From assembly GCA_965224465.1 (NCBI GenBank), contig OZ245049.1:4800001-4832000 (forward strand): a DNA stretch of 32,000 nucleotides. The letters run 5' to 3'. The notes below the pieces were generated by a model. It was not told where the DNA came from, did not search any database, and saw only the letters and a list, made by a program, of their open reading frames with translations. This document shows, one piece after another, positions 3,653 to 32,000 of this stretch. A program made the translations under genes and the position numbers. Position 1 is the stretch's first letter. Each line of letters begins with the position of its first letter. Source of the DNA: Flavobacteriaceae bacterium (GTDB lineage: Bacteria; Bacteroidota; Bacteroidia; Flavobacteriales; Flavobacteriaceae).

Positions 3653-4708
3653 ATGAAGTTTTCTATAGAGGAACAAAAACAATACAGCCGTCATTTAATG
3701 CTGAACGAAATAGGTGAGCAAGGGCAATTGAAACTTAAAAAAGCAAGGGTTCTTGTGATTGGTGCTGGTGGATTGGGCTGTCCTGTATTGCAAATTATAG
3801 CAGCTGCAGGTGTTGGAACAATTGGAATTATAGACGATGATAAAGTGGAGCAGAGTAATTTGCAACGCCAATTATTGTATACCCATCAGGATCTAGGTGA
3901 TTATAAAGTAGCAGCAGCAGCCAAGCGTTTGAGTGGCTTAAACCCTTATATTCGTTTTGTAACTTATAGGGAAAGATTGACCGCTCTAAATGCCATTTCT
4001 ATGTTTTCTAATTATGATATTATTGTAGATGGTTCAGATAATTTCCCAACACGCTATTTGGTAAATGATGCCGCTGTTTTGGTAGGGAAACCATTGGTGT
4101 TTGCTTCCATTTTTAAATTTGAAGGACAGGTTTCGGTATTCAATTATAAAAATGGCCCTACTTATAGGTGCTTATTTCCGTCGGCTCCAGAGGCGCATGC
4201 CATGCCTTCGTGTTCTGAAATAGGGGTGTTTAGTGTACTTCCAAGTCTTGTTGCTGCCTTTCAGGCCAATGAGGTGCTCAAAATAATTTGTGAAATTGGC
4301 AGCGTATTGTCGGGGAAGTTATGGACTTTAAATGCACTTAGTTTAGAACAACGTGTATTTGAATTCTCTAAAAATAAGGCAGATGTAATTACTAGGCTAG
4401 AAAAGGATTACGGATTGTTTTGTGGTCTTTCTGCCCCTGTTTCCGAAATAACATTGGAAGTTTTAATGGCAAATAGGGACTCCTATATGCTGTTGGATGT
4501 GAGGACAGAAGAAGAAAGGGAAGCGTTTCATATTGGTGGAACTCATATTCCGTTGGATGCACTTCGTAATAGGTTTGTAGAACTGAAAACAGCAAAAGAA
4601 ATTGTGGTGTATTGTAAGTCTGGACTTAGAAGTAAAAAAGCCATTCAATTATTACAAGAATTGGGTTTGAAAAATGTTTTTATTAATTTAAAAGGGGGTT
4701 GTTTTTAA
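3653..4708 (+). CDS. thiF: ThiF/MoeB-family adenylyltransferase fused to a C-terminal rhodanese domain (MoeZ-like sulfur-carrier activating enzyme)
   Basis: 351 aa. Rossmann motif VLVIGAGGLGCPV, then DDDKVEQSNLQRQ. The C-terminal ~100 aa carries the rhodanese active-site loop VVYCKSGLRSKKA. It is the last gene of the thi operon. Confidence 0.85.
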   Translation: MKFSIEEQKQYSRHLMLNEIGEQGQLKLKKARVLVIGAGGLGCPVLQIIAAAGVGTIGIIDDDKVEQSNLQRQLLYTHQDLGDYKVAAAAKRLSGLNPYIRFVTYRERLTALNAISMFSNYDIIVDGSDNFPTRYLVNDAAVLVGKPLVFASIFKFEGQVSVFNYKNGPTYRCLFPSAPEAHAMPSCSEIGVFSVLPSLVAAFQANEVLKIICEIGSVLSGKLWTLNALSLEQRVFEFSKNKADVITRLEKDYGLFCGLSAPVSEITLEVLMANRDSYMLLDVRTEEEREAFHIGGTHIPLDALRNRFVELKTAKEIVVYCKSGLRSKKAIQLLQELGLKNVFINLKGGCF

Positions 4709-4770
4709 GCGCTGTTTTTTAGGGTGAAATAATAAAATATGTCCTGTTTCATGTCAATTTAGTCTCAGAA

Positions 4771-4808
4771 TAGCGTGTCGTAGCCTAGGTTACGACACGC
4801 TATTTTTT
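4771..4808 (+). terminator. Rho-independent terminator of the thi operon
   Basis: Perfect 12 bp stem TAGCGTGTCGTA / TACGACACGCTA (4771-4782 / 4791-4802) with an 8 nt loop, followed by TTTTTT. Confidence 0.8.
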
Positions 4809-4828: not shown

Positions 4829-4936
4829 AACACCAAATATATTTCCAAATGACGATTTAGGAATGTAATTATTTTCTGTTTGAGTGTTGTTAAACTATTT
4901 ACATCAGTCATTTGGATTGTAATTCCCAGAGGGCTT
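4829..4936 (+). repeat. Internally deleted copy of the ~160 bp TIR-bearing intergenic repeat (left arm plus right arm, centre missing)
   Basis: CACCAAATATATTTCCAAATGACGATTTAGGAATGTAATTATTTTCTGTTT aligns with the left arm of the full copies. AAACTATTTACATCAGTCATTTGGATTGTAATT aligns with the right arm. About 50 nt of the central section are absent. Confidence 0.7.
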
Positions 4937-5580
4937 GCCTCAAACAGAAAATATATCTCGAATTCTTGGATGTGGCTGTTTATTTTATGAAAATAAGACT
5001 TCAATATAACGATTCAGTATTTCAAAACTAATTGAATTTTAAAGAGTTTTTTTAAAAAACACCTGTTCTGTTTTCGAGAGCTTTTTTTTATAACGGTTAT
5101 TATAAGGTAATAGAAAGCTACTTGTTTTTTGATGTACCTAAGATTTGTTAAATAAATAACGGTATTAGTGTGCGTTTTGTGTTGGTTTGTGTATCTTTGT
5201 CGGCGAGGAATGTGCAAATGCTCCTTTTTTACATGCATTTAATTTGTTAAATCTGTATCATTATTTGGAGATATATCAAACGTATTTATAAATGACTTTT
5301 TAGAAAAAGAACTGTTTTTTCCTGATTCTATGCAGGAAATTTAAGGGTAATAACAGCCTTTTTTAGTTTTTTTAAAAACTAAAGGGAGGTAAGGCTTTGA
5401 TTTACAGGTTTTTTTGGGTTTGTTTTTTGTGTTGATTGAAAGGAGTAGAGAAGAACGCTCCTTGCTTTACATCAAAACGTGGGGTGCTTTCATGTTGATG
5501 ATAGGCTTAAAGATAAAAGAGTTTGTAAGCAGGAGACGCATTTAAACGGAATAACATCGTTTTTAAAAAAATAAAAAATT

Positions 5581-6309
5581 ATGCCAGGAAAACAAGCAGC
5601 AACAGTAGGAAGTAATCATACTTGTCCCATGTGTAGTGGGACAACACCACACGTAGGAGGTCCAGTAACTCACGGAGAACCTACGGTGCTATTTAACGGA
5701 AAACCCGTAGCAACTATAGGGAGTTTGTGTATATGTGTAGGAGCTCCAGATATGATAGTGCAAGGAAACCCAACCGTATTAATTAATGGGAACCCGATAG
5801 CCTGTGTTGGTGATATGACAGCTCATGGAGGTGTAATCATCTCAGGGTCTTCAAATATTATTATTGGTAGTAGAACCTCCAATCCTCCTACTGAAATAAT
5901 GCCTATAAAAAGAATACCCTTTCCTAAAATCACATTTGTAAATAGATTATTTGGCAATGCAAAAGAAGCCATTGCCAATCAGCAGAAGATTAAAGAACTT
6001 TCTGAATCTAATGATGGTGAACCGATTATATATAATTTACAGTGGGTTAAAGATGAGAAGATAACGAAAGAGTCAAAAGAATTAAAAGAAGTCACTTTAC
6101 GTGCGAATGTTCTAAATATTCCTGATGGAGAAACCTTAGTGTTTACCGTTAAAAGACCTCTTAAATCTACCAATGATACTGGGGACAGTACAGAAGATAC
6201 AGAAGATCTTGTTGAGTTAAAAGGTACGGTACAAGATAAAAAGGTTGAGCTTATTTGGAAAATTAAAGACTTTACTGAAGAGAGCAATCAAAAATCAAGT
6301 CAAAATTAA
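5581..6309 (+). CDS. PAAR-domain spike-tip protein with a ~145 aa C-terminal extension
   Basis: 242 aa. The N-terminal ~97 aa has the three-fold PAAR-like repeat pattern with Cys/His ligands (HTCPMCSG..PHVGGPV, TVLFNGKPVATIGSLCIC, TVLINGNPIACVGDMTAHGG). The rest is charged and Ser/Thr/Asp-rich. Its stop lies 2 nt before the next ATG. Confidence 0.8.
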   Translation: MPGKQAATVGSNHTCPMCSGTTPHVGGPVTHGEPTVLFNGKPVATIGSLCICVGAPDMIVQGNPTVLINGNPIACVGDMTAHGGVIISGSSNIIIGSRTSNPPTEIMPIKRIPFPKITFVNRLFGNAKEAIANQQKIKELSESNDGEPIIYNLQWVKDEKITKESKELKEVTLRANVLNIPDGETLVFTVKRPLKSTNDTGDSTEDTEDLVELKGTVQDKKVELIWKIKDFTEESNQKSSQN

Positions 6310-6311
6310 AA

Positions 6312-9300
6312 ATGACCAATCAAAAAAACGCATTTAATGATGTTATTGAAACTTTATCATTTACGGTAAAAGGTGCTGGAGTTGAATCTGAAGAAGAAGC
6401 AAAAATAGAGATTAAGAAAAAAGGAATTTATTTACATTTTTTGCGTTTGGGACTATTTGATAGAAATGCAAAAAATCAAGATGAACTAGATGTTAATTAC
6501 ACAACTAACATAGATGAAAACACGACGATTACACCTGAGCAACAGCGATTGATTAAATTTAATAATAATTTAATTGAAAGCTGTTTAGTTAAAATAGATA
6601 ATACGAGAGTTGCTAAACCTGTTGACAAGTTTATAAATTATCAAGAAAAAGAAATTTCTTTAGACAAAGTTACTGTCTACACTAAAGAAGGGCTGTCTGG
6701 GTTGAAAAACTTTTACTTTCATCCCACAAATTTAAGTACAGGGTATATTTATTTGATGAATGATGATGACCCTAATGACTATTGCGAATTACATGTTGAC
6801 GATTTTGGTAAACTCAATTATGTTGAATGGAAGTTCAAACGTAATATTGGTAAAGATGCTAAGGAACTGGATGTAAGAGCGCCTTCAGTAACATCAATAA
6901 AAAGTAAAAGAATACACCCGCCAGGAAAAAAGCTATGGGTTGCTTATTCTGCTACACAATGGTCTAGAGAATATCACGCCGACTTAAATTCTGATAGAGA
7001 AAAACGTAAAAAGCGCATGAAACTTTTTGATTGCGTAGCCATTAAAAAAGGAGGGCAGAAAGATAAAGCGTCTACAGATAAACATTTAGGTGGGGAGGAA
7101 GATTATAGAATTAAGCCTATATCCTACAGAGAGGTAGAGGCAATGTATTCTGTAAAAAACAAATCTGAGGCTTATGCATTTCAGAAAACGTTACATGAAA
7201 TTCATGCCGATGAGAAAAGAGAAGATCTAAAAGGAACGAATGATACCTTTGAAGACTTATTCTTTATTATTGATGATCCTATAGGTATTGCAGAAGATGT
7301 TGGGGGGCTTTTAGATGAAGCACATGATAAACATAGAGCAACGGTAGAGTCTATACAAACCGGAGAAGATGAAAAGGATATTTTTGAAAGATTACAAAAT
7401 AAACAGGAAGGGAAATCTGAATTTATTAATTCTGGGTATGGGCAACAGATAAATGCCTTATTCTGCAATGCACTTACGCTATACAAACTTGTAAATTGTG
7501 ATGAGAAAATAAAAGATGAATATGAGAAGTATTTAGATTATAAAAAAATAAATACCATTCTTGCTTTTTCATACCGAGAAAAACAGCGAGAAAGAATAAT
7601 GTACTTTAGACAGGATTTTTTAAGGATTTTAAAAAGCGATTATTATAAAATTTACTTTAATGATGGTTTAGGAGGAAACGATCAAGATACCTTTGAGGTA
7701 AGAAGTATTATTGCTTCTCACATGTCGCTATTAATCGAACACCCTCAACACAAAGATAGGTTTATAGATGTTATAGAAAAGTATAAAGGAAATAATGATA
7801 AGGATGTAGATAGTTTTATCGAAAGCTCAGTGAATTCTAATGATACTATTAGAAAACTGCTCACCAAAGAGTTTAATATAGACGATTTTAAACTAAGTTA
7901 CATAGCATTTAAAAATGGATTTACACTTTCTGCAATGATTGTAAAATCTATGAAAGATGGATTTGCAGCATATACTAAACATGCGGTAAGGGTTAAAGAT
8001 TTTAGAATTGTAGATGAATCGGTAAAGGCTTTTAAATCTAAAAGTGGTTGGAATATTAAAATTAAAACAAAATCTGCCAATAGTCATTTGGGAAAACTAA
8101 ATTTCGGATTGCATGTTAAAAGTATTAAAGAAACTCCCAATATCTCTTTTGATGGTAAAGGGAAAACAATTATAATTAAAACCTCTGAACGCATAGCAAA
8201 ACAAGCAGCCCTAAATAAAAGTATTATTATACCAGGGATTGGTTTAGGTACGAAGACCTCTAGAGTATTACAAAACCTACTAGAAAATCTTAATTTTAGA
8301 AAATTTATAGCAGGGATGGAACTGGTGATTACACTTATCAAAGTGAATAGTTACGCAGAGAAGGATTCGAATAAAAACCTTGTTAGTTTAGCAGGGGCTG
8401 GAGCTGATTTAACGTCCGCTGTATTGGCGTATCAAGAAGCTAGTATGCAATTGGAAAATGCAACTACCCGATCCCTTAGGTATATTGGAAAAATGGGTAG
8501 AGTAGCGGGTTTATTTGGCTCTGGTATCTCTGTAGCCATGTGTGTTAGGGATTCTATAGATAGTTATCAGCTTCGTGATATGGATGCGAGTATAACATGG
8601 GGTTTTACCGCAGTTGTGGGGGGTGTGTTGTTAGCCGATGGTATCGTAGCGTGTGCGGCTTGGTGGGCTGCAGGTACTGCAGTGGGTTTTTTGACTTTTG
8701 GTTGGGGGCTTGTATTCTTGGTCTTATTTGTAGGTCTTACAATGCTAGCTATGTATCTTACAGATAAGGCTTTGGAGAGGTTTTTAAAGAATAATATTTT
8801 AAGCAATGATAATCCTTTTAATTCCACCGAAACAATGCCTTATAAATATGTACAAGCATTGTATAATAACAGCGACACGCTGGTAGATAGTGAAGTTGCC
8901 AGATGGCGTGATTTTGTTGTCGCTTCAGATGATTTATACGATTTGTTAATTAGTTATAGAGTAGATTTTCAATATTTGGAAATGGTAGACTACAAGGAGA
9001 ATGAAAATGAAAAAGAATCCATGATGGATTATATACGTAGTGTTAATCAGATTGGTGCTGGTATGAAATCGATAACCTATAAAAAAATAGTCATTACCAT
9101 AATACTACAAAAATTTATACATAACGTAAGTGAATTTAATTATGCCTTGGTACTATTCCCTAAAGGATTAAAAAATAAGGAACCAGATAATGCAGCTATA
9201 TTTTTAAACAATACAGCAGTTCGGCTTATTGAATATAAAAAATTAGATGGATTACAAATAGAGTTTTCTATAAACAGTAATTTGCGAAAAATAATGACTA

Positions 9301-9545
9301 GAGGTTCAGAATTTCTACTATTCAGCCAAGTTTGTGTTAATAAAGAAGCGAACGAATACTGGCCTAGCCAACGTGGTAAATCCCGCTATCATGGGTATAA
9401 GTTTAATGCCACGAATGATATAGGAGGTATGGGTAGAGCAGGTACAGCTAAGTTCCTAGCAGAAATATCGAATACAGTAATGAATGATTATTTAGGGGCT
9501 AATATACGTATTGGTACGCTAAAAGAAATTAAAAATTGGAAATAA
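6312..9545 (+). CDS. Large (1077 aa) putative membrane-targeting effector/toxin, VasX / BTH_I2691-like architecture (tentative)
   Basis: A long uninterrupted ORF coupled to the PAAR gene. N-terminal motifs GYIYLMNDDD, WVAYSATQWS and IIDDPIGIAEDVGG match, from memory, the N-terminal region of VasX-type T6SS effectors. A glycine-rich hydrophobic multi-helix block spans about nt 8379-8765. No recognisable catalytic motif was found. Confidence 0.6.
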   Translation: MTNQKNAFNDVIETLSFTVKGAGVESEEEAKIEIKKKGIYLHFLRLGLFDRNAKNQDELDVNYTTNIDENTTITPEQQRLIKFNNNLIESCLVKIDNTRVAKPVDKFINYQEKEISLDKVTVYTKEGLSGLKNFYFHPTNLSTGYIYLMNDDDPNDYCELHVDDFGKLNYVEWKFKRNIGKDAKELDVRAPSVTSIKSKRIHPPGKKLWVAYSATQWSREYHADLNSDREKRKKRMKLFDCVAIKKGGQKDKASTDKHLGGEEDYRIKPISYREVEAMYSVKNKSEAYAFQKTLHEIHADEKREDLKGTNDTFEDLFFIIDDPIGIAEDVGGLLDEAHDKHRATVESIQTGEDEKDIFERLQNKQEGKSEFINSGYGQQINALFCNALTLYKLVNCDEKIKDEYEKYLDYKKINTILAFSYREKQRERIMYFRQDFLRILKSDYYKIYFNDGLGGNDQDTFEVRSIIASHMSLLIEHPQHKDRFIDVIEKYKGNNDKDVDSFIESSVNSNDTIRKLLTKEFNIDDFKLSYIAFKNGFTLSAMIVKSMKDGFAAYTKHAVRVKDFRIVDESVKAFKSKSGWNIKIKTKSANSHLGKLNFGLHVKSIKETPNISFDGKGKTIIIKTSERIAKQAALNKSIIIPGIGLGTKTSRVLQNLLENLNFRKFIAGMELVITLIKVNSYAEKDSNKNLVSLAGAGADLTSAVLAYQEASMQLENATTRSLRYIGKMGRVAGLFGSGISVAMCVRDSIDSYQLRDMDASITWGFTAVVGGVLLADGIVACAAWWAAGTAVGFLTFGWGLVFLVLFVGLTMLAMYLTDKALERFLKNNILSNDNPFNSTETMPYKYVQALYNNSDTLVDSEVARWRDFVVASDDLYDLLISYRVDFQYLEMVDYKENENEKESMMDYIRSVNQIGAGMKSITYKKIVITIILQKFIHNVSEFNYALVLFPKGLKNKEPDNAAIFLNNTAVRLIEYKKLDGLQIEFSINSNLRKIMTRGSEFLLFSQVCVNKEANEYWPSQRGKSRYHGYKFNATNDIGGMGRAGTAKFLAEISNTVMNDYLGANIRIGTLKEIKNWK

Positions 9546-9555
9546 ATACATACGT

Positions 9556-10254
9556 ATGGATACATTAGCAAAACGCATAACAGCTTTTCCTGAGAAAAAT
9601 AAAATAGATGCTGTTGGAATTGATACAGGTGAGTTCGCAATAAAAGCAGATGATGTTGAATATATTGAAGATAGGACTTATTGTGCTAAAGGTAAAGGTT
9701 GGAATTATCAATGGATGTGGCCAGGTATGGGTATGGTTTTTTTTGTTTTATTTCTATTCTCAAATAAAAGTTTAGGAGCTATACTTTTTTGTAGTGTTTT
9801 TTTGGCGTTTTTTGGATATATGTATCTCTACCATTATATAGCTCCCACAAAACATTTTATTGCTCACAGACAAACGGGTAAGCTACAGCTGCCTATTTCT
9901 AAAAAGAAGCCACAAAAAATTGTGAATTTTGATGATGGAGATGGTATCATAAAAAGTTATTATGCAAACAATGTATATACGTCCTTGTTTTTTCAAACAA
10001 AAAAAGGCATAGAACCCAAAGCGGCAATGGGATTAGTAGATTGGAATAGAGAAGATTATTGGAATTTTCTGGTATGGTATATGGACAAAAACAGACCATT
10101 ACCTCCAGGGAAAGGATTTGATGCTTATCGTAAACAAGATTTTGAACGCAGAAAAGCAGCAGGTTTTCCTACACCTTTATATCCTAGTGATATTCCAACG
10201 CCAGAAACTACGCCTGAGCAGCAAGCGGAACGAAATCGTATTGGGGGCTGGTAA
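9556..10254 (+). CDS. Two-TM membrane protein, candidate cognate immunity protein
   Basis: 232 aa, starting 10 nt after the effector stop. Two adjacent hydrophobic helices (GMGMVFFVLFLFS and LGAILFCSVFLAFFGYMYLY, nt ~9718-9840) are followed by a soluble ~130 aa Trp/Pro-rich tail. The function is inferred only from position and topology. Confidence 0.5.
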   Translation: MDTLAKRITAFPEKNKIDAVGIDTGEFAIKADDVEYIEDRTYCAKGKGWNYQWMWPGMGMVFFVLFLFSNKSLGAILFCSVFLAFFGYMYLYHYIAPTKHFIAHRQTGKLQLPISKKKPQKIVNFDDGDGIIKSYYANNVYTSLFFQTKKGIEPKAAMGLVDWNREDYWNFLVWYMDKNRPLPPGKGFDAYRKQDFERRKAAGFPTPLYPSDIPTPETTPEQQAERNRIGGW

Positions 10255-10277: not shown

Positions 10278-10343
10278 AACAACAATAACGCTAGAAGGCA
10301 AAATAAACTATTTACATCAGTTATTTGGATAGTATTTGGTATT
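10278..10343 (+). repeat. Partial copy (centre-right section plus right arm) of the intergenic repeat
   Basis: AACAACAATAACGCTAGAAGGCAAAATAAACTATTTACATCAGTTATTTGGATAGTATTTGGTAT aligns with the right ~65 nt of the full copies (GCTAGA subfamily). No left arm is present. Confidence 0.7.
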
Positions 10344-10462: not shown

Positions 10463-11155
10463 TTGAAAACAATAACCATAGCTATTGATGGCTTTTCATC
10501 CACAGGAAAAAGTACTGTTGCAAAACAATTAGCCAACAAGCTAAAGTATATTTATGTGGATACGGGAGCTATGTATAGAGCAATTACATTGTTTGCCTTG
10601 CAACATGATTTTATTGGAATTATAAAATTAGATAAAGCGGCTATTCTCGCTGCTTTACCAACCATTAATATTAGTTTTAAATACAACGAATCTGTTGGTT
10701 TTGCTGAGGTTTTTTTGAATGATAAGAATGTAGAAAAAGAAATTAGAACCTTGTATGTTTCTCAATTTGTAAGTATTATTTCTACCATTTCGGAAGTGCG
10801 TAAAAAGTTAGTCGCGCAGCAACAAGAGATGGGGAAAGAAGGAGGGATTGTTATGGACGGAAGAGATATAGGTACTGTTGTATTTCCGTCTGCAGAGCTC
10901 AAATTATTTATGACAGCATCTGCAGAAAAACGAGGGCGTAGACGTTATGACGAGTTGATAAAACGTGGAGACAAAGTACGGTTAGAGGAAATAGTAGAAA
11001 ACGTATTAAAACGGGATCATATAGATTCTACAAGAAAAGATTCTCCTTTAGTAAAAGCAGACGATGCTATTGAATTTGACAATTCAGACATGACCTTGGA
11101 AGAGCAGTTTGAGAAAATTTACACTTTGGTGGAACGTGTGCTAGGGGATGAGTAA
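10463..11155 (+). CDS. cmk: Cytidylate kinase
   Basis: 230 aa, TTG start. Motifs: ITIAIDGFSSTGKSTVAK P-loop, YVDTGAMYRA, MDGRDIGTVVFP. Confidence 0.9.
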   Translation: MKTITIAIDGFSSTGKSTVAKQLANKLKYIYVDTGAMYRAITLFALQHDFIGIIKLDKAAILAALPTINISFKYNESVGFAEVFLNDKNVEKEIRTLYVSQFVSIISTISEVRKKLVAQQQEMGKEGGIVMDGRDIGTVVFPSAELKLFMTASAEKRGRRRYDELIKRGDKVRLEEIVENVLKRDHIDSTRKDSPLVKADDAIEFDNSDMTLEEQFEKIYTLVERVLGDE

Positions 11156-13725: not shown

Positions 13726-14301
13726 ATGTTTATATTTAAAAAATTAACCCCATTTATTATCTTATCCTTATTGTTTGTACAATGTAATGGTGATAAGGCT
13801 TTTGAAATTGAAAAGGGACGTGTAGGGAATATCCTCAAAGGAACTACAGTTCAAGAGTTAGAAGTAATTTTTAAATCAGATTCCTTAGTCAAAATTTTAA
13901 GTGAAGGAGATTTAGGAGGTCAAACTAGTAAATATTTAGTGGAAGATGATCAGTATTTTGTGTATTCTAAAATCGATAAAAAGAAATTATTAGAAATAGA
14001 ACCTGTAAATCAACACGATTCTATTTCTACAATAAAGAGTGTTCAGATTTTTGACCCTCGTTTTAAAACAGCGAATGGAATTGGATTGCATTCTACGTTT
14101 CAGGAAATTAATACCCACTGTAAAATTAACAAAGTAGAAACAACATTTACTTCTGTAATTTTGTTTATTGATGCCTTGAATGCAACTATTTCTATTGATA
14201 AATCAGAATTAGGGATTAAAGATTTTACTCTTCAAAAAGTGACGATAGATCAAATTCCAGATTTGGCTAAAGTAAAATATTTCACCATTTGGTTTGATTG
14301 A
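13726..14301 (+). CDS. Hypothetical secreted protein or lipoprotein
   Basis: 191 aa. Signal peptide with a lipobox-like LLFVQC. No recognisable family. Confidence 0.6.
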   Translation: MFIFKKLTPFIILSLLFVQCNGDKAFEIEKGRVGNILKGTTVQELEVIFKSDSLVKILSEGDLGGQTSKYLVEDDQYFVYSKIDKKKLLEIEPVNQHDSISTIKSVQIFDPRFKTANGIGLHSTFQEINTHCKINKVETTFTSVILFIDALNATISIDKSELGIKDFTLQKVTIDQIPDLAKVKYFTIWFD

Positions 14302-29655: not shown

Positions 29656-29886
29656 ATGCCTATAAAAAGTTATATACTTCATTCTTTTAAAGGGGATCGA
29701 TGTAAACTTGAGAAGGATTTAACTCAATTTTCAGAATGTGAAATTATTCCTTCTGAGAATCTTGATGTTGTCGTACTTGTTACTGATACGGATTCAGAAA
29801 TTGCAGATTGCAACTTATTTAATAAAATCAATGATCTAAAAAGTTTGAAACATCTCTCTCTAGTTTCTGGCTTTGAAGACAAATAA
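29656..29886 (+). CDS. napD: NapD-like chaperone for periplasmic nitrate reductase
   Basis: 76 aa, 7 nt upstream of napA. The size and beta-alpha-beta pattern (IKSYILH ... VVVLVTDTDS ... HLSLVSGF) fit NapD. The sequence signal is weak, so the call rests mainly on context. Confidence 0.55.
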   Translation: MPIKSYILHSFKGDRCKLEKDLTQFSECEIIPSENLDVVVLVTDTDSEIADCNLFNKINDLKSLKHLSLVSGFEDK

Positions 29887-29893
29887 AATAGAT

Positions 29894-32000
29894 ATGGTAC
29901 AAAAAAGAATTGATCGTAGATCTTTTGTTAAAAAAATGGCTGCAGTAGCGGCTATGACAGCAGCGGCAACCATGTTTCCTGGGATTGTTTTTGCACGTGA
30001 GCAGGAACTAGGAATACCTACGGGTGATTTATCTTGGAAAAAAGGACCTTGTCGTTTTTGTGGGGTAGGTTGTGGGATATTGGTAGGCGTAGAAAATGGA
30101 AAAGCAGTGGCTGTAAAAGGGGATCCTAATTCTTCTGTAAATAAAGGGTTGCTTTGTGTAAAAGGATACCATCAAGCGATGTGCATTCAGGCAAAAGATA
30201 GGTTGGAATATGCCTTAGTAAAAAAGAATGGTAAATATGTAAAAACTTCCTTAAGTGAAGCGTTAGATTTAGTGGCAAGTAAAATGAAATCTACCATTGA
30301 AAAATATGGAAAAGATTCGGTAGCGATGTACACCTCTGGTCAGTCGACCATTCCAGAAGGGTATGTAGCTTCTAAATTGATGAAAGGTGCCATTGGAACC
30401 AATAACTTAGATTGCAATGCACGTTTGTGTATGGCAAGTGCGGTGACAGGATTTCTAACTACTTTTGGAGCTGATGAGCCGATGGGTTGTTACGAAGATA
30501 TAGATCATGCAGATTATTTTATTACATGGGGAAATAATATGGCAGAAATGCATCCCGTGTTGTTCTCTCGTATGTTAGAGCAAAAAAATAATAGAGGTGC
30601 TAAAATTATAGATTTTGCTACCAGAACTACGCGTTCCAGTATGGCGTCTAATAAATCAATACTCTTTGAACCTCAGACGGATTTAGCAGTGGCAAATGCT
30701 ATTTGTTATGAAATTATCAATAACGGATGGGTCAATAAAAAGTTTGTAGAAGATCATACAAATTTTCTAAAAGGAAAAACAAATATAGGCTACGGTTTAG
30801 AAGATCATTTTAGCTTTAAAGACAAAGCAACTAAAATTAGTTTTGAGGATTATAAATTATTTTTAGAAGATTATACTCCAGAAATAGTTTCAAAATACTC
30901 AAAAGTTTCCGTAAAAGATATTAAGTATTTAGCAACAATCTACGGAGATCCTAATAAGAAAGTTGTTTCCTACTGGTGTATGGGAATGAATCAACATACA
31001 CGTGGTACTTGGATAAATAATTTGGTGTACAATATTCATTTATTAACAGGGAAGATTTCACAACCGGGGAATGGCCCATTCTCTTTAACGGGACAACCAT
31101 CCGCCTGTGGAACGGCACGTGAAGTAGGAACATTCACTCATAAGTTACCAAAAGGAGTGGTAATGAAAGAAAAACACCGTCGTTTGGCAGCAAAAATTTG
31201 GAAAGTACCTTACGAAAACATTTCACCAAAACCTACGTACCATGCAACCGAGATGTTTAGAGCGGTAGATCGTGGAGATATCAAATTTATTTGGACTCAA
31301 GTTACAAATCCTTTAGTATCCTTACCAAAAACAAGTCGTTACCGACCTGCGATGGAAAAAGATTCTTGCTTTGTGGTAGTTTCGGATGTATTTCCAACTC
31401 CTACTACGGATGTTGCAGATGTAATTCTGCCAGCAAAATGGCATATAGAAAAAGGAGGATTGTTCGGGAATTCTGAGCGAAGAACGCAGTATTGGGAATC
31501 CATGGTGGAAGGTCCAGGAGAAACAGAAGCCGATGCTTGGATGACCATTGAAGTAGCCAGACGAATGGGCTACGGGCATTTATTTCCATACTCAAAAGAA
31601 AATCACGTAGAAGAAATATACAACGAATACCGTCAGTTTCATCAAGGGAAAAAACACGGAATGGCACCATTGGAAGTGTTGAAAAAAGAATCAGGTGTTA
31701 TTTGGCCTTATGTAGATGGTAAATCTACCCAGTGGAGGTTTAATGCAGCATACGATCCTGCATGTGATAATGGAAAAGATTTTCATTTCTATGGAAAACC
31801 AGATGGCAGAGCGGTGATTTGGCAACGTCCTTATGAGCCCGCTCCAGAAGTGCCGGATCAAGAATATCCTTTTTGGTTAAATACAGGGCGTGTAATTGAA
31901 CATTGGCATACAGGATCTATGACGCGTCGTATTCCTGTATTACACAAAGCAATGCCACATTCTTATGTGGAACTGCATCCCGATGATGCTAGGAAAATGG
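29894..32000 (+). CDS. napA: Periplasmic nitrate reductase catalytic subunit, 3'-truncated by the window edge
   Basis: The ATG at 29894 opens a frame that stays open to the window end, which is why it is missing from the ORF track. Twin-arginine signal IDRRSFVKK. 4Fe-4S motif CRFCGVGCGILV...(x26)...CVKG. Mo-bisMGD motifs include TGQPSACGTAREVG and NTGRVIEHWHTGSMTRR. Confidence 0.9.
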   Translation, partial: MVQKRIDRRSFVKKMAAVAAMTAAATMFPGIVFAREQELGIPTGDLSWKKGPCRFCGVGCGILVGVENGKAVAVKGDPNSSVNKGLLCVKGYHQAMCIQAKDRLEYALVKKNGKYVKTSLSEALDLVASKMKSTIEKYGKDSVAMYTSGQSTIPEGYVASKLMKGAIGTNNLDCNARLCMASAVTGFLTTFGADEPMGCYEDIDHADYFITWGNNMAEMHPVLFSRMLEQKNNRGAKIIDFATRTTRSSMASNKSILFEPQTDLAVANAICYEIINNGWVNKKFVEDHTNFLKGKTNIGYGLEDHFSFKDKATKISFEDYKLFLEDYTPEIVSKYSKVSVKDIKYLATIYGDPNKKVVSYWCMGMNQHTRGTWINNLVYNIHLLTGKISQPGNGPFSLTGQPSACGTAREVGTFTHKLPKGVVMKEKHRRLAAKIWKVPYENISPKPTYHATEMFRAVDRGDIKFIWTQVTNPLVSLPKTSRYRPAMEKDSCFVVVSDVFPTPTTDVADVILPAKWHIEKGGLFGNSERRTQYWESMVEGPGETEADAWMTIEVARRMGYGHLFPYSKENHVEEIYNEYRQFHQGKKHGMAPLEVLKKESGVIWPYVDGKSTQWRFNAAYDPACDNGKDFHFYGKPDGRAVIWQRPYEPAPEVPDQEYPFWLNTGRVIEHWHTGSMTRRIPVLHKAMPHSYVELHPDDARKM

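Follow-up and report, generated by a model that had tools for sequence, protein, structure and literature searches.

We analyzed a stretch of 32,000 nt from the genome of a Flavobacteriaceae bacterium (contig OZ245049.1, positions 4,800,001 to 4,832,000; this whole stretch is referred to below as the window), in which three co-directional genes lie between the housekeeping genes thiF and cmk. The three open reading frames (ORFs) are located on the + strand at positions 5581-6309 (gene 1, 242 aa), 6312-9545 (gene 2, 1077 aa) and 9556-10254 (gene 3, 232 aa). All of them are intact and tightly spaced, with intergenic gaps of 2 nt between genes 1 and 2 and of 10 nt between genes 2 and 3. These coordinates reproduce exactly those of the original prediction, an earlier reading of this DNA that had described the triad as a cargo-effector module composed of a PAAR protein, a large membrane-active effector and a small membrane protein in the position of an immunity gene.

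Gene 1 encodes a PAAR spike-tip protein with a C-terminal tail. The N-terminal PAAR domain that had been proposed for this protein was confirmed by a match of residues 20-88 to the PAAR_motif family (PF05488; 81.8 bits for a cut-off of 27; E = 4.2e-23). The AlphaFold2 (AF2) model of the protein, with a predicted local distance difference test score (pLDDT) of 82, presents the fold of the solved PAAR proteins VCA0105 of Vibrio cholerae and c1882 (4jiv_D and 4jiw_D; Foldseek template modeling (TM)-scores of 0.74-0.77, normalized by the target). The match to 4jiv_D has an E-value of 1.7e-4, a target-normalized TM-score of 0.77 and 34% identity, and phage PAAR proteins were matched as well. We found 181 homologs of gene 1, exclusively in Bacteroidota. 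The PAAR cone domain, supported by both the Pfam and the fold matches, occupies residues 1-100 (+ strand, 5581-5880), and its residues C15, H24, C52 and H82, which are invariant across 50 homologs, are candidate metal-site residues of the tip. It is followed by a linker with the sequence IPFP and a helix (residues 101-147; + strand, 5881-6021; modeled helix at 128-142), a region common to PAAR-toxin fusions. The last part is a β-sandwich tail (residues 148-232; + strand, 6022-6276), a proposed cargo-binding or loader domain whose strands were modeled at residues 149-229 with pLDDT values mostly above 80. No significant match to this tail was found in the PDB with Foldseek.

We then compared gene 1 to the PAAR proteins of related loci, using a context survey of 20 genome loci and six more loci fetched through individual proteins. 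The identity of the tail between loci ranges from 45 to 69%. Residues 1-139 of gene 1 align to PAAR proteins that carry a Het-C-like domain and measure 1059-1080 aa, and the β-sandwich tail occupies the position of the fused toxin in these proteins. The latter, whose additional domain is also Zn-phospholipase-C-like, are encoded in loci L009 (4355-7597), L010 (514-3756) and L017 (17455-20634), where they share VgrG islands with VasX modules. Apparently short PAARs were seen in loci L004 and L016, and we rejected them as a separate class: both genes run into the ends of their contigs.

Gene 2 had been described as devoid of any recognizable enzymatic motif, with a glycine-rich cluster of hydrophobic helices, and as possibly a new effector family for which the earlier reading knew of no characterized flavobacterial counterpart. 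The hydrophobic cluster is indeed present, at residues ~733-821, but the protein does contain a recognizable domain and the proposal of a new family was not supported. Residues 140-242 match the VasX_N family (PF20249) with 35.4 bits for a cut-off of 27. The search of a set of 5.8 billion proteins yielded 24 homologs, all from Bacteroidota; PF20249 is present in all but two of them and several bear the NCBI name "toxin VasX". A profile built from 22 homologs aligns to the MIX region of Ptx2 (E = 3e-5). Finally, the only PDB matches of the gene 2 model with E ≤ 0.001 were Tke5 (9r8g; E = 2.6e-8) and Ptx2 (9qpv; E = 2e-6), with alignments of probability 1.00 that extend over ~1100 columns and cover the whole chain. 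These results point to a member of the family of VasX, BTH_I2691 and Bte2, predicted to be a pore-forming type VI secretion system (T6SS) toxin.

The AF2 model of gene 2 divides into three parts (β/α at residues 1-280, helical at 285-880 and β-rich at 883-1037), which is the layout of the VasX family: a MIX domain, a helical region and a C-terminal β/Ig-like domain (PMC12718326, PMC12909789). The N-terminal MIX or VasX_N domain, a delivery marker, corresponds to residues 1-280 (+ strand, 6312-7151) and is supported by the Pfam match and the profile alignment. When this domain was compared to the MIX consensus motifs shhPhR, hRxGhhYhh and hhF/YSxxxWS/T, we found LHFLR (41-45), STGYIYLM (142-149, with GYIYLM at 144-149) and AYSATQWS (211-218) to be invariant or nearly so across 22 homologs. 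The predicted α-helical toxic region spans residues 281-880 (+ strand, 7152-8951) and contains long modeled helices (285-558 and 649-880); in Tke5, the corresponding region suffices for killing (PMC12909789). Within it lie the glycine-rich hydrophobic helices, which form a predicted membrane-inserting hairpin (residues 733-821; + strand, 8508-8774; Kyte-Doolittle peaks at 761-821; modeled helices at 733-753, 757-786 and 791-816). The C-terminal domain (residues 881-1077; + strand, 8952-9542) is β-rich and Ig-like, with modeled strands at 883-1037, and Foldseek related it weakly to small β-sandwich and Ig domains. No other segment of the toxin diverges as much (mean distance of 0.79).

Several observations weigh against this family assignment. 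Of the profile searches that the original prediction had proposed, those with the PAAR and VasX_N models gave matches above the cut-offs, but the match to the NCBIfam BTH_I2691_fam model (NF041559) was partial: it reached 62.3 bits, under the cut-off of 150, and covered positions 118-266 of the 858 positions of a profile that derives from proteobacterial members. The central MIX motif of gene 2 is devoid of the consensus Arg, and the Pro of the first motif is replaced. The AF2 model is of medium confidence (pLDDT of 65; predicted TM-score of 0.57), and its global TM-scores relative to Tke5 and Ptx2 are low (0.23-0.33). Gene 2 is a member of the VasX/BTH_I2691/Bte2 family and does not constitute a new family. 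A flavobacterial counterpart is also on record. A 2025 PNAS survey, in which Bte2 is the experimentally characterized Bacteroidota member, lists in its Dataset S3 Bte2/VasX orthologs in Olleya aquimaris, Tenacibaculum gallaicum, Tenacibaculum maritimum, Spongiivirga citrea and Pseudozobellia thermophila, as well as in Aquimarina, Cellulophaga and Capnocytophaga species; the flavobacterial orthologs are listed with an adjacent immunity gene and without an rnf locus (PMC12718326). Because these orthologs include several of the same genomes as our related loci, the toxin is best viewed as a new member of a catalogued family. By analogy with VasX, Tke5, Ptx2 and Bte2, we infer that gene 2 would form pores and act from the periplasm.

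A second pair of this type was identified outside the window. It consists of P0023, a VasX-like protein of 1116 aa that is 26% identical to gene 2 over the MIX, helical and transmembrane regions, and of P0165, a tailed PAAR of 232 aa that is 58% identical to gene 1, both on a contig equal in length (5,241,564 bp) to the one that bears the window proteins. The source genome therefore probably carries two PAAR/VasX-like modules.

Gene 3 encodes a predicted inner-membrane immunity protein of an unnamed family, as judged from its position, from its tandem arrays in relatives and from its co-variation with the toxin. No Pfam or NCBIfam match was found for this protein. PADLOC likewise returned no component match at E ≤ 0.01 for any protein of the triad, and we rejected an anti-phage defense reading on this ground. 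The description of gene 3 as a small protein with two transmembrane segments was upheld: hydropathy reveals a single hydrophobic stretch long enough for a tight transmembrane hairpin (residues 50-95; + strand, 9703-9840), and two hydrophobic segments are present in most of 55 relatives. A strongly basic stretch, rich in K and R, follows the second transmembrane segment, and both termini are predicted to be cytoplasmic because of this segment (positive-inside rule). The C-terminus contains a conserved motif (VWYMDKNRPLPPG..FD.YR..DFERRKA.GFP.PLY; residues 166-232; + strand, 10051-10251), identified from the alignment. Over its ~65 residues, the mean pairwise distance is 0.30, relative to ~0.8 elsewhere in the protein, and the N-terminus and the hairpin are variable across the family. 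The family comprises 359 representatives at the 50% cluster level, with the conserved C-terminus driving most matches of the exhaustive search, and its public annotation is merely "hypothetical" or "transmembrane protein". One member of 381 aa in Ancylomarina (P0379; locus L106, 10032-11177) carries the name "prepilin peptidase" in both NCBI and UniRef, probably in error.

The distribution of gene-3-like genes also agrees with the immunity position that had been proposed. They are found directly 3' of the toxin gene, and co-directional with it, in essentially all related loci. Frequently, they occur in tandem as arrays of 2-9 copies, which are 80-99% identical at the DNA level within an array. 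Copy number differs between two strains of T. maritimum, as seen in loci L102 and L103 (CP137243 and CP137252; 14252-17300), where the DNA identity of the array repeats is 83-100%. The array of one T. maritimum strain also contains ORFs of 43 aa and 128 aa, which may be broken gene-3-like copies. Because its members are always next to the toxin, form tandem arrays and vary in copy number between strains, we consider the family immunity-like. Gene 3 would then be the cognate immunity protein of gene 2, with a neutralizing mechanism akin to that of the characterized relatives.

The order PAAR, toxin and gene-3-like gene is conserved in the related loci, and the module adjoins genes of the T6SS in relatives. 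Among the 60 flanking ORFs of these loci, we counted 10 TssD (PF17642) and 8-9 VgrG. The module adjoins TssC in Aquimarina. In Labilibaculum, it is part of a complete locus with the order ClpV-TssC-TssN-TssD-TssD-VgrG-...-PAAR-VasX_N, and similar arrangements were observed in Cellulophaga and Ancylomarina. VgrG is located directly 5' of the PAAR gene in loci L003, L005, L014, L017 and L020; in L009, L104 and L106, it lies upstream at a short distance. Cassettes of the same layout as the triad, which lie as orphans amid housekeeping genes, were found in T. maritimum. In two loci, ORFs without annotation stand between VgrG and the tailed PAAR (87 and 133 aa in L104, 9301-9975; 539 aa in L106, 4305-5924); these could encode extra accessory or chaperone proteins. 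The original prediction had left the choice between T6SS subtype iii (T6SS-iii) and an extracellular contractile injection system (eCIS), and the TssD, VgrG and TssC genes of the relatives support the former. At the family level, the cassette is a T6SS-iii cargo module, and it is highly probable that the triad itself is a PAAR, VasX-family toxin and immunity module of this system.

The related loci also provide information on the manner in which the toxin may be attached to the spike. Every tailed PAAR that we examined (more than 20 loci) is directly followed by a VasX_N gene. In contrast, tail-less PAARs that share the PAAR domain and the IPFP-linker region (Tamlana locus L107, 6001-6471; locus L020, 14923-15426) end in GYL..DFS[IL] and precede effectors other than VasX: a protein of 896 aa without Pfam match in L107 and a protein of 1044 aa with DUF5675 in L020. 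This suggests that the C-terminus of the PAAR protein matches the class of its cargo. In loci L011 (Aquimarina) and L019 (Pseudozobellia), the PAAR gene is replaced by a DUF4280 PAAR-like gene, which is a separate gene beside the toxin. Separate adjacent genes for DUF4280 and a VasX-like toxin were also seen in L015 (Aquimarina). In Ascidiimonas meishanensis (P0021; locus L012, 9092-12904), a DUF4280 PAAR-like domain and a β tail are fused in frame to the VasX-like toxin in a protein of 1270 aa. The tails of the DUF4280 proteins present weak similarity to the tail of gene 1 (E-values between 6e-5 and 0.008 when four sequences were searched), which is suggestive only. No DUF4123 adaptor was detected in the window, nor among the best 25 of the 43 families of the flanking ORFs.

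We further analyzed the co-variation of distances between the parts of the cassette across 16 loci (Mantel and partial Mantel tests). The distances of the tail correlate with those of the toxin MIX domain (r = 0.52), and this correlation persists when controlling for the toxin body (partial r = 0.49; P = 1e-4). The partial correlation of the tail with the toxin body is virtually null (r = -0.03), and the tail is less correlated with the core (0.31) or the linker (0.24) of its own PAAR protein than with MIX. The variable part of gene 3 presents the opposite pattern: it correlates with the toxin body (r = 0.84; partial r = 0.80) and little with MIX (partial r = 0.12). These results suggest that the cassette is made of two exchangeable blocks, one for delivery (the tail of the tip and MIX) and one for killing and protection (the toxin body and the immunity gene).

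We tentatively propose that the PAAR tail acts as a loader of the toxin, a possibility that we take seriously but that falls somewhat short of probable. The principal alternative retains T6SS-iii delivery and gives the tail another role: VgrG or some other factor would recruit the toxin and the tail would stabilize or shield the spike. We regard this alternative as rather doubtful, but quite conceivable. Two observations that count against a loader speak for it. First, physical linkage or recombination blocks alone could yield the correlation of the tail with MIX, as well as that of gene 3 with the toxin body. Second, the β tail is retained in the fusion protein of A. meishanensis, and tethering may not be the only role of the tail because the tail is kept where toxin and tip are already covalently joined. 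The ORFs that stand between VgrG and PAAR in L104 and L106 offer further candidates for recruitment. Against this alternative, the tail strictly co-occurs with VasX-like genes and is absent from the PAARs that precede other effectors, it tracks MIX better than it tracks the remainder of its own protein, and the orphan cassettes encode no other candidate for the recruiting factor. Taken as a whole, the proposal that the VasX toxins of Bacteroidota are loaded by dedicated PAAR or DUF4280 tips, whose tail recognizes MIX, without DUF4123 and from a two-block cassette with a two-transmembrane immunity protein whose cytoplasmic motif is conserved, is in our view a little less than probable.

In our main reading, which we hold as highly probable for the identity of the module, the triad is an orphan cargo cassette of a Bacteroidota-type T6SS-iii in this member of the Flavobacteriaceae. 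The PAAR protein of gene 1 would cap a spike formed by a VgrG whose gene lies outside the window, and, if the loader reading is correct, its β-sandwich tail would bind the MIX domain of the toxin, replacing the DUF4123 (Tap/VasW) adaptor of Proteobacteria. The toxin would be delivered into the periplasm of a neighboring cell in a contact-dependent manner, where its hairpin would insert in the cytoplasmic membrane and form small ion-conducting pores, leading to the collapse of the membrane potential. Gene 3, as a two-transmembrane protein of the inner membrane, would neutralize the membrane-active region of the toxin within the bilayer of producing cells and of their kin.

It is possible, though unlikely, that the cassette is functionally stranded, i.e., that it is a recent or decaying orphan in a genome without a working T6SS and is kept only for immunity against the VasX-like toxins of neighbors. 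In T6SS biology, immunity genes are commonly found as orphans. As the original prediction had pointed out, genes for Hcp, VgrG, sheath or baseplate are absent from the 32-kb window; no remnant of these was found either, and tblastn detected no trace of VgrG or Hcp in the non-coding gap ahead of gene 1 or in the rest of the window. This weighs against delivery by a functional T6SS as well as for a stranded cassette. The TssC of the source genome is also not among the matches listed, but this is uninformative: each of the best 120 of 6256 matches shares 80% identity or more with the Aquimarina query. On the other side, the three ORFs of the triad are intact and tightly spaced, a second PAAR/VasX-like pair (P0165 and P0023) is probably present in the same genome, T. 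maritimum possesses orphan cassettes of the same layout, and other genomes that carry the module encode TssC.

Similarly, we consider it improbable that eukaryotic grazers or hosts, rather than bacteria, are the main targets of the toxin, as was first reported for VasX of V. cholerae against Dictyostelium. VasX is cited as killing amoebae in PMC13133200, and the family is found in flavobacteria that live in association with animals, for example T. maritimum and Capnocytophaga. However, a dedicated and diversifying immunity gene, present in arrays, indicates intoxication among kin, which is a signature of antibacterial toxins (PMC12718326). Finally, it is very improbable that the cassette serves an eCIS or another PAAR-tipped machine: PAAR proteins tip eCIS particles too (PMC8651086) and the window offers no direct link to any apparatus, but every apparatus gene seen beside the relatives (TssD, VgrG, TssC, TssN, TssE and ClpV) is of T6SS-iii, no eCIS gene was seen and MIX is a marker of the T6SS (PMC12909789), so that this half of the earlier proposal is without support and was rejected.

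The genomic position of the triad is suggestive of an insertion. Upstream, the ThiF gene (3653-4708; PF00899 and a rhodanese domain) closes the thi operon, and a non-coding gap of 870 nt with a GC-content of ~0.31 precedes gene 1. Downstream, cmk encodes cytidylate kinase (10463-11155), and the genes after it encode a QueE-like radical-SAM protein, a HerA-like ATPase, FolD and Ffh. A hairpin (+ strand, 4769-4804; inverted repeat I4; 94% complementary; 0-nt loop) whose arms measure 18 nt and which precedes a T-run is probably the terminator of the thi operon and would mark the upstream limit of the housekeeping block, although it is not among the sites reported by the terminator scan. That scan, together with the one for sigma-70 promoters, which was not designed for the promoters of Bacteroidota, did not yield sites above those of shuffled sequence.

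The triad is not a housekeeping cluster that would be universal beside thiF, in agreement with the original prediction. Indeed, none of 80 metagenomic cmk loci from relatives harbors the triad, or thiF in the arrangement of the window, upstream of cmk, and other copies of the module adjoin VgrG, Hcp or TssC. The order cmk-queE-herA-folD-ffh is itself kept in several of these 80 loci. The closest homolog (70% identity) is found amid RadC, HpaII restriction-enzyme and insertion sequence (IS) genes and not beside thiF. In addition, a direct repeat of 34 nt brackets the triad. Its first copy (TAAACTATTTACATCAGTCATTTGGATTGTAATT; 4891-4924, no strand assigned) constitutes a candidate left edge, and its second copy (10304-10337, no strand assigned), which is 31/34 identical to the first and located between gene 3 and cmk, constitutes a candidate right edge. 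The repeat has exactly two matches in the 32 kb, for 0 expected from shuffles, and the similarity between the copies stops at about 34 nt. It could represent a scar left by an att-like insertion, or else a regulatory site that is shared. The first copy is held in the 54-nt loop of a perfect inverted repeat of 15 nt (4870-4884 and 4939-4953).

An inserted islet of ~5.4 kb is thus suggested by the absence of the triad at 80 cmk loci and by the direct repeat that brackets it, and we infer that the cassette was inserted where it now lies, between the thi operon and cmk. This scenario has several points against it. The insertion is suggested rather than observed, because none of the relatives yielded an empty thiF-cmk site, no integrase, transposase or recombinase is present, and the repeat motif is missing from other loci. 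The best relatives for the cmk locus are only 67% identical and show a synteny breakpoint, not a clean comparison of the states before and after insertion. We rejected the repeat as an att site common to the family: it is absent from 104 loci, and the other orphan cassettes do not present analogous flanking repeats. Neither tRNA genes nor Rfam families were detected across the window, which therefore contains no tRNA-type integration site.

The rest of the window presents a few features that are distinct from the triad. An ORF of 191 aa without Pfam match (13726-14301) is kept 3' of herA in metagenomic relatives (38-56% identity). In the thi operon, the ORFs at 15-398 and 1148-1768 both match TMP-TENI (ThiE), the match of the first one (127 aa) being partial and at the cut-off. 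An open frame of more than 700 aa (29864-32000) exits the end of the window; it carries a twin-arginine-type signal (RRSFVKK), looks like a molybdopterin oxidoreductase or a NapA-like enzyme and is unrelated to the triad.

Our results do not overturn the current understanding of these systems. They add a divergent effector/immunity pair of the VasX family in marine Flavobacteriaceae, a group for which such toxins have been catalogued but never tested, and the family extends to the fish pathogen T. maritimum, in which the orphan layout is the same. A point of wider value is the attachment of the toxin to the spike in T6SS-iii. The strict pairing of tailed PAARs and toxins offers a testable answer for the loading of MIX-type toxins in this subtype, for which no adaptor is known, and the tail-loader reading, if true, would supply the missing loading mechanism of Bte2-like toxins. 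The family of gene 3 could receive a family model as a VasX-type immunity protein. The two-block co-variation also suggests how delivery modules and toxin/immunity modules get shuffled.

Four relatives of gene 2 have been characterized as T6SS toxins whose pores are ion-selective and which depolarize the inner membrane, each with a downstream immunity protein: VasX of V. cholerae, Tke5 of Pseudomonas putida, Ptx2 of Pseudomonas aeruginosa and Bte2 of Bacteroides fragilis (PMC12718326, PMC12909789, PMC13133200). Among these, Bte2/Bti2 of the B. fragilis GA3 T6SS-iii (PMC12718326) shares with the triad the phylum, the T6SS subtype and a three-part toxin with hidden transmembrane helices. Its immunity gene adjoins the toxin, and no DUF4123 adaptor is known: the adaptor of Bte2 is given as "None" (PMC13133200), and the Bte2 paper makes no mention of a PAAR protein (PMC12718326). 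Bte2 differs in that it requires the Rnf complex of the target, whereas the listed flavobacterial genomes are without rnf (PMC12718326), and in that it is too divergent from gene 2 to surface in sequence searches.

The systems Tke5/Tki5/Tap3 and Ptx2/Pti2/Tap6 also resemble the triad. Their toxins combine MIX, a toxic helical region that contains a hydrophobic hairpin rich in Gly, and a β-rich C-terminus, and their immunity proteins are membrane proteins that act in the bilayer, as predicted for gene 3; Tki5, in particular, binds the transmembrane region of its toxin in the cytoplasmic membrane (PMC13133200). However, Tke5 and Ptx2 are only ~10% identical to gene 2, their global TM-scores are low, and DUF4123 adaptors load them onto VgrG, whereas the triad presents a tailed PAAR directly upstream of the toxin. 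VasX/TsiV2/VasW of V. cholerae involves the founding VasX_N member, a large, inner-membrane-disrupting T6SS toxin whose immunity gene lies 3'. It differs from the triad by its VasW (DUF4123) adaptor, its VgrG3 and VgrG2 clusters and its T6SS-i subtype, and its sequence similarity to gene 2 is confined to the N-terminal region.

Outside the T6SS, the immunity proteins of pore-forming colicins (Cai/Cia type) are small inner-membrane proteins that are thought to intercept the hydrophobic hairpin of the toxin. They have no counterpart of the large conserved cytoplasmic C-terminal motif of gene 3, and no sequence relationship is expected. Finally, TseT-PAAR4 of P. aeruginosa, as cited in PMC8651086, resembles the triad by a separate toxin gene beside a PAAR gene, the toxin being thought to ride on the PAAR tip. 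TseT requires both a chaperone and a co-chaperone, and its PAAR is devoid of this β-sandwich tail. Unlike TseT-PAAR4, the tailed PAAR class of the triad is found only in Bacteroidota and is paired specifically with VasX-like toxins.

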